From IMG/VR virus record IMGVR_UViG_2778261058_000019: DNA of 15,691 bases; one strand, 5' to 3'. A program made the translations under genes and the position numbers. The notes beneath the pieces were generated by a model that was not told where the DNA came from, did not search any database, and saw only the letters and a program-made list of their open reading frames with translations. Positions 3,559-12,383 of this stretch are shown one piece after another; position 1 is the stretch's first letter; the number at the start of each line of letters is the position of its first letter. The DNA comes from a virus (lineage: Duplodnaviria > Heunggongvirae > Uroviricota > Caudoviricetes).

Positions 3559-3858
3559 AAAAATTCCTTAATACTGATAACTTGGCGCACTATACACACG
3601 TTCCTGAAGAAAGCTATAGTTTTTTGATGGGGTTGAAGATGGCTGGATGTCTAAAATAAACATTGCTTCATATGTTCAACTATGCGTTAATGATTGCGTC
3701 GGTTTGAAGAACAGACGATATACGAAGTAGTTTACTAAAGCAGTTCTCATTTCAGGTGTTATTCACTTATTCCTTCTTTGAGTCTCTCCAATTAAGTACG
3801 AAGTCGTTTCTGTTATGCAAACCATTTATGCCGAAAGGCTCAAGTTAAGGAATGTAGA

Positions 3859-4074
3859 ATGTCAAATAAAATGACTGGTTTAGTAAAATGGTTTAACGCT
3901 GATAAAGGTTTCGGCTTTATTTCTCCTGTTGATGGTAGTAAAGATGTGTTTGTGCATTTTTCTGCGATTCAGAATGATAATTATCGAACCTTATTTGAAG
4001 GTCAAAAGGTTACCTTCTCTATAGAGAGTGGTGCTAAAGGTCCTGCAGCAGCAAATGTCATCATTACTGATTAA
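3859..4074 (+). CDS. cspB: Cold-shock protein CspB (CspA family, 71 aa)
   Basis: [38 protein letters not shown]... carries the cold-shock domain RNP motifs KGFGFI and VFVHF. SD AAGGA at 3847-3851, ATG at 3859. Confidence 0.9.
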
Positions 4075-4356
4075 AATTCATCGCTCGTCTGTATACGATA
4101 ACGAAGAAGGCTGATGCCTGAGTAGAGATACGGACAGAGTAGTGAATATTGGATCTCTTTAATAAAAAGTAAGGAGGTCCAATACATGAAACAATGGCTA
4201 GCATATTTGGCAAAATCTTAATCAGGAAAAGTATGCTAACCATTGTGGTGAAGTGCAGGTTTGCTGCATGAATAGTTTTACAGCAGAAGCTAACTGCTGG
4301 CATGGCAAAACAAAGTGCGTAAGTGGATGACTCCCACAAAAAGCACCACAATCTCA

Positions 4357-4437: not shown

Positions 4438-4608
4438 TCAGGCTACAGCTTTAAGATTTGTCTGGAATACTTTGTTGCAATGAGGGCAGATCAAAAGGGC
4501 ACCTTTTTGTACTCTTGAAAAACTGTGTTCTGACTCTTGGGTGCAGTTTGGGCAGGAACATTTAACGAGATAATTACGGCGTGATTTTGAGTTTTTACGT
4601 TCTGACAT
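4438..4608 (-). CDS. ynfU: Small zinc-ribbon protein (56 aa; CxCxxC...CxxC)
   Basis: ATG at 4608-4606 is preceded by AGGA about 8 nt upstream. Product MSERKNSKSRRNYLVKCSCPNCTQESEHSFSRVQKGALLICPHCNKVFQTNLKAVA. The track's 73-aa version starts at an upstream ATG with no SD. The symbol ynfU (56-aa zinc-binding protein in Qin) is from memory and is uncertain. Confidence 0.5.
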   Translation of the reverse strand: MSERKNSKSRRNYLVKCSCPNCTQESEHSFSRVQKGALLICPHCNKVFQTNLKAVA

Positions 4609-6383: not shown

Positions 6384-6609
6384 GGTAATATTAAATCGGA
6401 ACATTTACATCGCGGAATGTAAAATTTAAATAAAAAGGACTCTTCCATGAGCCAAAATTCCTGAAATCTTAAGGGTAAGATAAAAGGTCTTAATCAGAAT
6501 GACACGTTTTATTAATAAATAAAGCTATTCTTTCATTGCTGTGTTTTTCTTTACAAAAGTAATCCTTGCTATGGGTGGTTAATCATGCGTTAATGGTGTT
6601 CTGGTTTGT

Positions 6610-6642
6610 TACAAATTTATCTGAAGCAGTCATTGTTATAAT
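6610..6642 (+). promoter_or_regulatory. Candidate cspI promoter (perfect -10 TATAAT at 6637-6642, weak -35, AT-rich upstream)
   Basis: TATAAT lies about 100 nt upstream of the cspI ATG, consistent with the long 5' UTRs of cspA-family genes. Called by eye; low confidence. Confidence 0.3.
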
Positions 6643-6745
6643 TTTATTATTTGTACCTCTTGAGATTTCCTTGTTGGTTTTTCTCTCTGATATTTTTTTT
6701 CGGACCATTCTGCCCAAGGGCTAATTTCTTCAAAAGGTAATAATT

Positions 6746-6958
6746 ATGTCTAACAAAATGACTGGTTTAGTGAAATGGTTTAACCCTGAAAAAGGTTTTG
6801 GTTTCATCACGCCGAAAGATGGCAGCAAAGATGTGTTTGTCCATTTCTCAGCAATTCAGAGCAACGATTTCAAAACATTAACTGAGAATCAGGAAGTTGA
6901 ATTTGGTATTGAGAACGGACCTAAAGGTCCTGCCGCTGTTCATGTAGTGGCGCTTTGA
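6746..6958 (+). CDS. cspI: Cold-shock protein CspI (CspA family, 70 aa)
   Basis: [38 protein letters not shown]... is a cold-shock domain protein and a close paralog of the cspB copy at 3859. Confidence 0.9.
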
Positions 6959-7163
6959 GGTAGACAATATTACAAACCATATTCACTTTAGATGCCCGTG
7001 TTGTCATGGTTCCCAGTATAGAACATCATCTTTTGATGTTTCTGACATGAATCCTTTCGGGGCAAAATGTATCTTTTGTAAATCAATGATGATTACATTT
7101 GATAATATTTCACAATACTTAAATGCCAGCCGTCTGTCGTTGGATTTAAAAAAGTGAAAATGA

Positions 7164-7186
7164 AGGCTCCTTCGGGAGCTTTTTTG
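7164..7186 (+). terminator. Rho-independent terminator ending the cspI transcript
   Basis: Hairpin GCTCC-TTCG-GGAGC followed by TTTTTT, about 200 nt after the cspI stop and right after the stop of a small Cys-rich reading frame. Confidence 0.65.
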
Positions 7187-7304
7187 CTTGGTGTCTATTC
7201 GATGGATACTCACATACTACGGTAACATCATGAAAAAAATCATAGTTTTTTTTAACTCTGAACCAGCAGTGGTAGTGCCAGCGATGACTGGAGTTAACAC
7301 CATC

Positions 7305-7460
7305 ATGCGTGAATATCCAAATGGCGAAAAAACACACCTTACTGTAATGGCCGCAGGGTTTCCATCTCTGACCGGAGATCATAAAGTCATTTATGTAGCC
7401 GCGGATCGACATGTTACTTCAGAAGAAATTCTGGAAGCAGCAATAAGGCTCTTGAGTTGA
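7305..7460 (+). CDS. ynfN: YnfN-like small protein (51 aa from ATG 7305; a 76-aa form from ATG 7230 is possible)
   Basis: ORF ending TGA 7458-7460. GGAG at 7290-7293 precedes ATG 7305, giving the 51 aa I recall for YnfN. In-frame upstream ATGs at 7284 and 7230 cannot be excluded. Confidence 0.45.
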   Translation: MREYPNGEKTHLTVMAAGFPSLTGDHKVIYVAADRHVTSEEILEAAIRLLS

Positions 7461-11808: not shown

Positions 11809-12383
11809 TGGCATTCAGAATGAGTGAACAACCACGGACCATAAAAATTTATAATCTGCTGGCCGGAACTAATGAATTTATTGGTGAAGGTGATGCATAT
11901 ATTCCGCCTCATACAGGTCTGCCAGCAAACAGTACCGATATTGCACCGCCAGATATTCCGGCTGGCTTCGTGGCTGTTTTCAACAGTGATGAGTCATCGT
12001 GGCATCTCGTTGAAGATCATCGGGGTAAAACGGTTTATGACGTGGCTTCCGGCGACGCGTTATTTATTTCTGAACTCGGTCCGTTACCGGAAAATGTTAC
12101 CTGGTTATCGCCGGAAGGGGAGTTTCAGAAGTGGAACGGCACAGTCTGGGTGAAGGATACGGAAGCAGAAAAACTGTTCCGGATCCGGGAGGCGGAAGAA
12201 ACAAAAAACAACCTGATGCAGGTAGCCAGTGAGCATATTGCGCCGCTTCAGGATGTTGCAGATCTGGAAATTGCAACGGAGGAAGAAATCTCGTTGCTGG
12301 AAGCATGGAAAAAGTATCGGGTATTGCTGAACCGTGTTGATACGTCAACTGCACAGGATATTGAATGGCCAGCACTGCCGTAG
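11808..12383 (+). CDS. tfaQ: Tail fiber assembly protein (lambda Tfa-like, 191 aa)
   Basis: ATG overlaps the stf stop (TAATG). [54 protein letters not shown]... matches lambda Tfa as I recall it. Confidence 0.85.

Follow-up and report, generated by a model that had tools for sequence, protein, structure and literature searches.

The cysteine-rich reading frame behind cspI in the Qin prophage of Escherichia coli is the catalogued small gene ynfQ, with a likely AUU start codon

Does an open reading frame that seems to lack a start codon represent the remnant of a gene, a shorter gene than it appears, or an intact gene with an unusual start? The window analysed here, a 15,691-nt stretch of DNA, raises this question downstream of the cold-shock gene cspI. 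A sequence-only reading had noticed a Cys-rich frame between the cspI stop codon and its terminator, and had noted that the sole ATG, at 7047, lies past the first Cys cluster. Translation of positions 6945–7160 bears out this description: a TAG at 6945–6947 is followed by a frame that is open from 6948 to a TGA at 7155–7157, and its peptide matches the one first described exactly. The frame is bounded by the TGA of cspI (6956–6958) on one side and by a hairpin and U-run (~7162–7187) on the other, and the list of open reading frames likewise gives a 36-aa ORF that begins at ATG 7047. From 6948 up to the first Cys codon there is no canonical start (ATG, GTG or TTG). The length of the frame, 69 codons, is by itself unremarkable, as 69 stop-to-stop frames in the window are this long or longer, versus a mean of 34 in base shuffles; conservation, not length, marks the frame as real.

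The window represents the Qin prophage region of E. coli K-12, and this context identifies the frame. Over positions 6700–7250, MG1655 and many other E. coli chromosomes match it with 100% identity. The RefSeq annotation of K-12 places here the gene ynfQ (‘cold-shock protein’, WP_071524604.1), whose 189-nt CDS corresponds to positions 6969–7157 of the window. The 62-residue product, MTNHIHFRCPCCHGSQYRTSSFDVSDMNPFGAKCIFCKSMMITFDNISQYLNASRLSLDLKK, is letter-for-letter the UniProt entry YNFQ_ECOLI, ‘Protein YnfQ’, and is encoded on at least 1000 contigs. It matches the Pfam family PF23641 (YmcF-like) from end to end, with residues 1–62 aligned to profile positions 1–62 of 62, a score of 111.8 bits (cut-off 27) and an E-value of 1.7e-32. 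The motifs of this family, CPxC...GSQYR.S.FD...NP.GA.CIFCK together with four Cys residues, are all present in the window protein, are invariant or nearly so in 41 aligned members, and are retained in divergent representatives of the family. We conclude, with a probability of roughly 0.93, that this Cys-rich frame is ynfQ, an intact and previously catalogued gene of the Qin prophage that encodes 62 residues (Table 1). The gene is known from RefSeq, UniProt and Pfam entries, and transcriptome papers cite its induction by cold shock. The name ynfQ is also in use for a different gene, a 37-aa protein encoded between ydfJ and ydfK (VanOrsdel et al. 2018; PMC6001520, Table 1), and literature searches by name mix that 37-aa protein with the 62-aa gene after cspI.

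Table 1. Features of the cspI-ynfQ region and of a phage-borne relative; positions are those of the window except in the last row
Feature	Position	Strand	Basis
cspA-type thermoregulator match, spanning the cspI leader (long 5’ UTR) and CDS into the ynfQ start	6600–6985	+	Rfam RF01766, 112.8 bits (gathering 78), E 1.1e-28
cspI CDS, 70 aa, stop TGA 6956–6958	6746–6958	+	ORF list; RefSeq annotation of K-12 (region 100% identical)
ynfQ Shine-Dalgarno sequence GAGGT, overlapping the cspI stop, 7 nt before the start	6957–6961	+	Sequence; (A/G)AGG equally spaced in 78/78 related loci
ynfQ start codon ATT (AUU)	6969–6971	+	First codon of RefSeq CDS WP_071524604.1; homologous codon in 78 loci
ynfQ CDS, 62 aa, YmcF-like small protein	6969–7157	+	PF23641 match; UniProt identity; dN/dS ~0.05
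First Cys knuckle C9-P10-C11-C12; C9 and C12 putative metal ligands	6993–7004	+	C9 and C12 in all members, including divergent ones; C11 varies
Second Cys knuckle C34-I-F-C37	7068–7079	+	C37 invariant, C34 nearly invariant; CIFCK kept in divergent members
GC-rich hairpin followed by a U-run, directly 3’ of the ynfQ stop, terminator-like	7162–7187	+	Fold -14.9 kcal/mol, z -2.8
ynfR, 21-aa small protein gene overlapping the hairpin	7160–7225	+	RefSeq annotation; tagged protein detected, cold-induced (PMC6001520)
ynfN, next in the module cspI-ynfQ-ynfR-ynfN-gnsB	7230–7460	+	Annotation; phrog_3425 1–76/76, E 7e-54; co-induction (PMC11228462)
Intact ynfQ homolog after a cspI-like gene	L082 2491–2761 (Escherichia phage PhiR42_1)		Also in PhiR63_1, 2H10 (two records) and mEp460

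Comparisons among relatives provide evidence that this gene is maintained. A total of 132 homologs, mostly of 62 residues, are distributed across the Enterobacteriaceae, and residues 5–45 are nearly invariant in their alignment (IHFRCPCCHGSQYRTSxFDVSEKNPFGAKCIFCKSxMxTFDN), with the first Cys cluster inside the best conserved block. Over codons 2–45, synonymous sites are saturated between genera and dN ranges from 0.05 to 0.17, giving a dN/dS of ~0.05 (median 0.056 where computable); the two alternative frames of this DNA yield values of 2.5–3. The alignments show a gene that is conserved across Enterobacteriaceae and lambdoid phages and, as judged by these rates, is under strong purifying selection, which argues against decay.

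If the gene is intact, translation should begin upstream of the first Cys cluster, and comparison of the start region identifies a likely site. Eighty of the 275 loci found with relatives were taken from one-genome-per-species collections, and the codon homologous to position 6969 could be located in 78 of them. This codon is ATT in 54 loci, ATG in 20 and ATC in 4, and an AAGG, GAGG or CAGGAG motif lies at a constant distance 5’ of it in all 78. The loci of Klebsiella, Raoultella, Enterobacter, Leclercia, Silvania and one Citrobacter have ATG at exactly this position, and because of this 6969 is strongly supported as the initiation site. ATT 6969 together with GAGGT places an AUU at a conserved coding start with a Shine-Dalgarno sequence in the range of 5–9 nt. 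A second in-frame ATT, at 6981, lies 19 nt from the Shine-Dalgarno sequence and codes for the nearly invariant Ile5. From the annotation, the geometry of the Shine-Dalgarno sequence and the comparative evidence, we infer that ynfQ is initiated at AUU 6969. A search of the literature for ribosome-profiling or N-terminomics records of ynfQ and ymcF returned none. The proposal of the sequence-only reading that the frame might be translated from a non-canonical start is supported on each of these grounds, and most relatives have an uninterrupted frame of 62 codons.

The alternative that the sole product is a 36-residue protein made from ATG 7047, with the upstream Cys cluster untranslated, has in its favor that the frame contains no other canonical start, but the comparative data make it extremely unlikely. 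The Met27 encoded there is peculiar to this E. coli copy, with Lys, Arg or Gln in homologs and K as the consensus residue. The most conserved block, IHFRCPCCHGSQYRTS, lies upstream of ATG 7047, where strong purifying selection is seen in the ynfQ frame only, and a 36-aa product would carry a single Cys knuckle, making a four-ligand site impossible.

The frame had also been likened to the 56-aa zinc-ribbon protein encoded elsewhere in the window and suggested to be its decayed paralog. That protein, MSERKNSKSRRNYLVKCSCPNCTQESEHSFSRVQKGALLICPHCNKVFQTNLKAVA, is annotated as ynfU (4438–4608, minus strand), and experimental detection of this small protein has been reported (bioRxiv 10.1101/511675). 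Like YnfQ, YnfU is a small Qin prophage protein with two Cys knuckles and is probably a zinc ribbon; both are short and combine a CxC-type first cluster with a CxxC second cluster. The shared layout holds only loosely, as the spacing is C9-P-C11-C12 ... C34-x-x-C37 in YnfQ versus C17-x-C19-x-x-C22 ... C41-x-x-C44 in YnfU. The proposed alignment of the two proteins gave no support for paralogy. BLASTP of YnfQ against YnfU returned no alignment even at E ≤ 100. YnfU belongs to PF23499 and NF038384, a different Pfam and a different NCBIfam family from the PF23641 of YnfQ, and YnfQ does not match either YnfU model. A YnfU family alignment was then built and compared with the YnfQ family profile by hhalign, which assigned a probability of 4.8% over 8 columns, equivalent to a single CPxC knuckle. 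YnfU differs further in its opposite strand, canonical ATG start, basic N-terminal tail and lack of any link to a csp stop codon. The layout is one common to any pair of small two-knuckle metal-binding proteins, and paralogy is not supported by the sequences compared. The idea that ynfQ is a pseudogene of YnfU whose start codon was lost also conflicts with an intact frame of 62 residues in most relatives, purifying selection and annotation as a gene, and its probability is practically negligible.

Taken as an intact 62-residue protein, YnfQ belongs to a family with two knuckles and four conserved Cys residues, the pattern expected of zinc ribbons. Because divergent members keep C9, C12, C34 and C37 and vary C11 and H13, a C4 site is indicated. 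An AlphaFold2 model (pLDDT 75) has two short strands around the knuckles, with residues 44–58 forming a C-terminal helix. The nearest structural neighbors found by Foldseek in PDB and BFVD are zinc ribbons, including the N-terminal domain of MqsA, TFIIE-alpha, eL43 and phage ‘zinc-ribbon’ proteins, all at E > 0.3, and no match to either collection was significant. We read YnfQ as a putative C4 zinc ribbon, with C9, C12, C34 and C37 as its predicted ligands, followed by a C-terminal helix. A review has modelled the protein with Fe2+ as rubredoxin-like (PMC13348028). Residues 5–18 (positions 6981–7022), IHFRCPCCHGSQYR, resemble box II of Rieske Fe-S proteins (CPCHGSxY), and PDB profile hits of this kind are weak (E 0.065–0.9). 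A Rieske [2Fe-2S] site was rejected on the grounds that H13 and C11 are replaced in divergent members and that there is no box I; the resemblance of CPCCHGSQY to box II is judged to reflect chance or a generic similarity among knuckles.

Searches for clues to function yielded a small and uniform family. An exhaustive HMM search of 1.84 billion representatives recovered only 42 clusters, all short, and none of these contains an informative domain fusion; two long hits were spurious multi-fragment matches. PHROGs contains no family for YnfQ. Our best guess, from the csp linkage and fold class only, is that YnfQ may bind RNA or a larger partner protein in cold adaptation.

The position of ynfQ immediately behind cspI raises a further alternative, in which ribosomes undergo +1 frameshifting on CUU UGA G (6953–6959) at the end of cspI to produce a ~136-aa CspI-YnfQ fusion and no separate protein. 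The ynfQ frame is indeed +1 relative to cspI, and the last cspI codon and stop read CTT TGA, such that after slippage from CUU to UUU the next codons read would be GAG GTA GAC and onward. The arrangement recalls the programmed +1 frameshift of prfB (CUU UGA C), in which CUU is followed by UGA and the downstream frame is likewise +1. However, the end of cspI lacks the stimulatory Shine-Dalgarno-like element that prfB has 3 nt upstream of the CUU, and no CspI-YnfQ fusion proteins are known. The site varies as well: among 46 scored loci with an adjacent csp, CTT TGA occurs in only 8, with CTC TAA, CGC TAA, GTA TAA and others in the remainder, and the distance from the csp stop to the start of the ynfQ homolog is 13 nt in 40 of these loci but 12 nt, which places the two genes in frame, in 6. 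A cold-shock domain is present in none of the 120 homologs listed, the representatives being all ~50–95 residues long, and the gene persists, with ATG in place of the 6969 codon, in lineages where no csp gene is detected. With site and frame relation unconserved and fusion-length homologs absent, a fusion was rejected as a conserved mechanism and is very unlikely to account for the E. coli locus. The CUU UGA G at the end of cspI is probably a coincidence; rare slippage in E. coli is still conceivable.

A separate YnfQ would be expressed in the setting of the cold-inducible cspI mRNA. No promoter better than chance was found between cspI and ynfQ, and the cspA-type thermoregulator match extends from the cspI leader into the ynfQ start (Table 1). 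Expression studies list ynfQ as ‘Qin prophage, cold shock induced’, with induction that parallels cspI and ynfN (PMC11228462), and report its co-regulation with cspG, cspH, cspI and ymcF (PMC11728337). A plausible sequence of events is that ynfQ is transcribed together with cspI in the cold and that ribosomes then initiate at its AUU. Downstream, ynfR begins 3 nt past the ynfQ stop. The first codons of this gene make up the terminator-like hairpin and U-run. Tagged YnfR rises strongly after cold shock (PMC6001520). As ynfR overlaps the hairpin and its product is cold-induced, we infer that some transcription reads through this hairpin, which would make it leaky in the cold. Further downstream, ynfN is flagged as ‘frameshifted’, a pseudogene, in the K-12 RefSeq record, yet the 76-aa ORF in the window spans phrog_3425 end to end; gnsB is annotated beyond it. 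Elsewhere in the window, a second cspA-type thermoregulator match is found at cspB (3698–4090, 158.8 bits), and positions 12151–12349 match Rfam IS009 (220 bits).

The choice of start codon appears to vary with the presence of a csp gene. Where an intact csp lies directly upstream (47 loci), the ynfQ homolog starts with ATT in 42, ATC in 4 and ATG in 1. Loci with no csp detected by tblastn within 60 nt upstream have ATG in 19 and ATT in 11, and account for 19 of the 20 ATG starts overall. Translated Klebsiella and Raoultella loci (L018 and L035) carry an ATG-initiated ymcF homolog and, ~100 nt upstream of it, a C-terminal csp remnant (...PAVVNVVAKRG*) with no intact csp ORF; the remnant was seen in these translated loci, the other csp-less loci having been scored by tblastn only. 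In Klebsiella and Raoultella, the ymcF-type small gene has outlived its csp partner. Against the pattern, ATT persists in Pseudescherichia and Atlantibacter, where no csp gene is present. The association, which involves only ~3–4 independent lineages, is suggestive of a weak AUU start being tolerated or selected where translation can couple to csp. No description of a correlation between start codon and csp adjacency was found in the literature searched.

The geometry of the junction offers a route for such coupling. Because the cspI stop lies inside the ynfQ Shine-Dalgarno sequence and the start follows 12–13 nt downstream, ribosomes terminating on csp are well placed to re-initiate. AUU initiation would then probably be helped by ribosomes that terminate on cspI 13 nt upstream, and the weakness of the AUU would hold YnfQ at a lower output than CspI. 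An AUU behind a normal Shine-Dalgarno sequence is also used by infC and pcnB of E. coli, where the weak start limits output, and the AUU of infC acts as an IF3-sensing autoregulatory device. In ynfQ, by contrast, the AUU sits 13 nt past the stop codon of a gene translated at very high levels, an arrangement that suggests coupling. A hairpin that sequesters the Shine-Dalgarno sequence and so enforces coupling was considered and rejected: a single-sequence fold pairs the ynfQ Shine-Dalgarno sequence with codons 7–9, but its z-score is only -1.75 and RNAalifold identified no conserved pair among 20 csp-adjacent loci. It is possible, though we regard the idea as tentative and somewhat doubtful, that the conserved AUU of ynfQ and ymcF serves as a regulatory device, acting through csp termination-reinitiation within 13 nt or through IF3-controlled start stringency.

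A close parallel to ynfQ is present in the E. coli chromosome downstream of cspG. This paralog, ymcF, encodes a 62-aa protein that is 65% identical to YnfQ and has the same four Cys residues. It is likewise annotated from an ATT 13 nt past the stop of its csp neighbor, the TAA of cspG, with the stop embedded in the Shine-Dalgarno sequence. The modules are alike in kind, cspG-ymcF-ymcE-gnsA compared with cspI-ynfQ-ynfR-ynfN-gnsB. The two genes differ in location, as ymcF belongs to the core chromosome (5417 of 5426 complete E. coli genomes), whereas the ynfQ locus is a prophage- or phage-borne copy found in 2145 of the 5426. At the cspG locus of E. coli, the ymcF and ymcE genes share 26 nt (L084, 765–790), and one database ‘protein’ of 95 residues (P0201) joins the C-terminus of YmcF to YmcE and is probably a frameshifted or miscalled ORF.

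The module of lysis cassette, cspI, ynfQ, ynfN and gnsB is also carried by the active lambdoid phages Tritos, PhiR42_1, PhiR63_1, 2H10, mEp460 and HannyBb. Of the seven Escherichia phage records, five show no annotated feature at the ynfQ homolog; it is labelled ‘cold-shock protein’ in Tritos and ‘hypothetical protein’ in HannyBb. The missing annotations are probably due to gene callers that ignore ATT as a start codon.

Small genes initiated at ATT appear start-less both to readers and to gene callers, as the frame behind cspI did here. The biology revealed at this locus is little new, the gene being already catalogued; its interest lies in the role of YmcF and YnfQ in cold adaptation and in the conservation of a weak AUU beside csp genes. 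Should the AUU prove to be regulatory, the amount of a zinc-ribbon protein would be tied to csp translation during cold shock.
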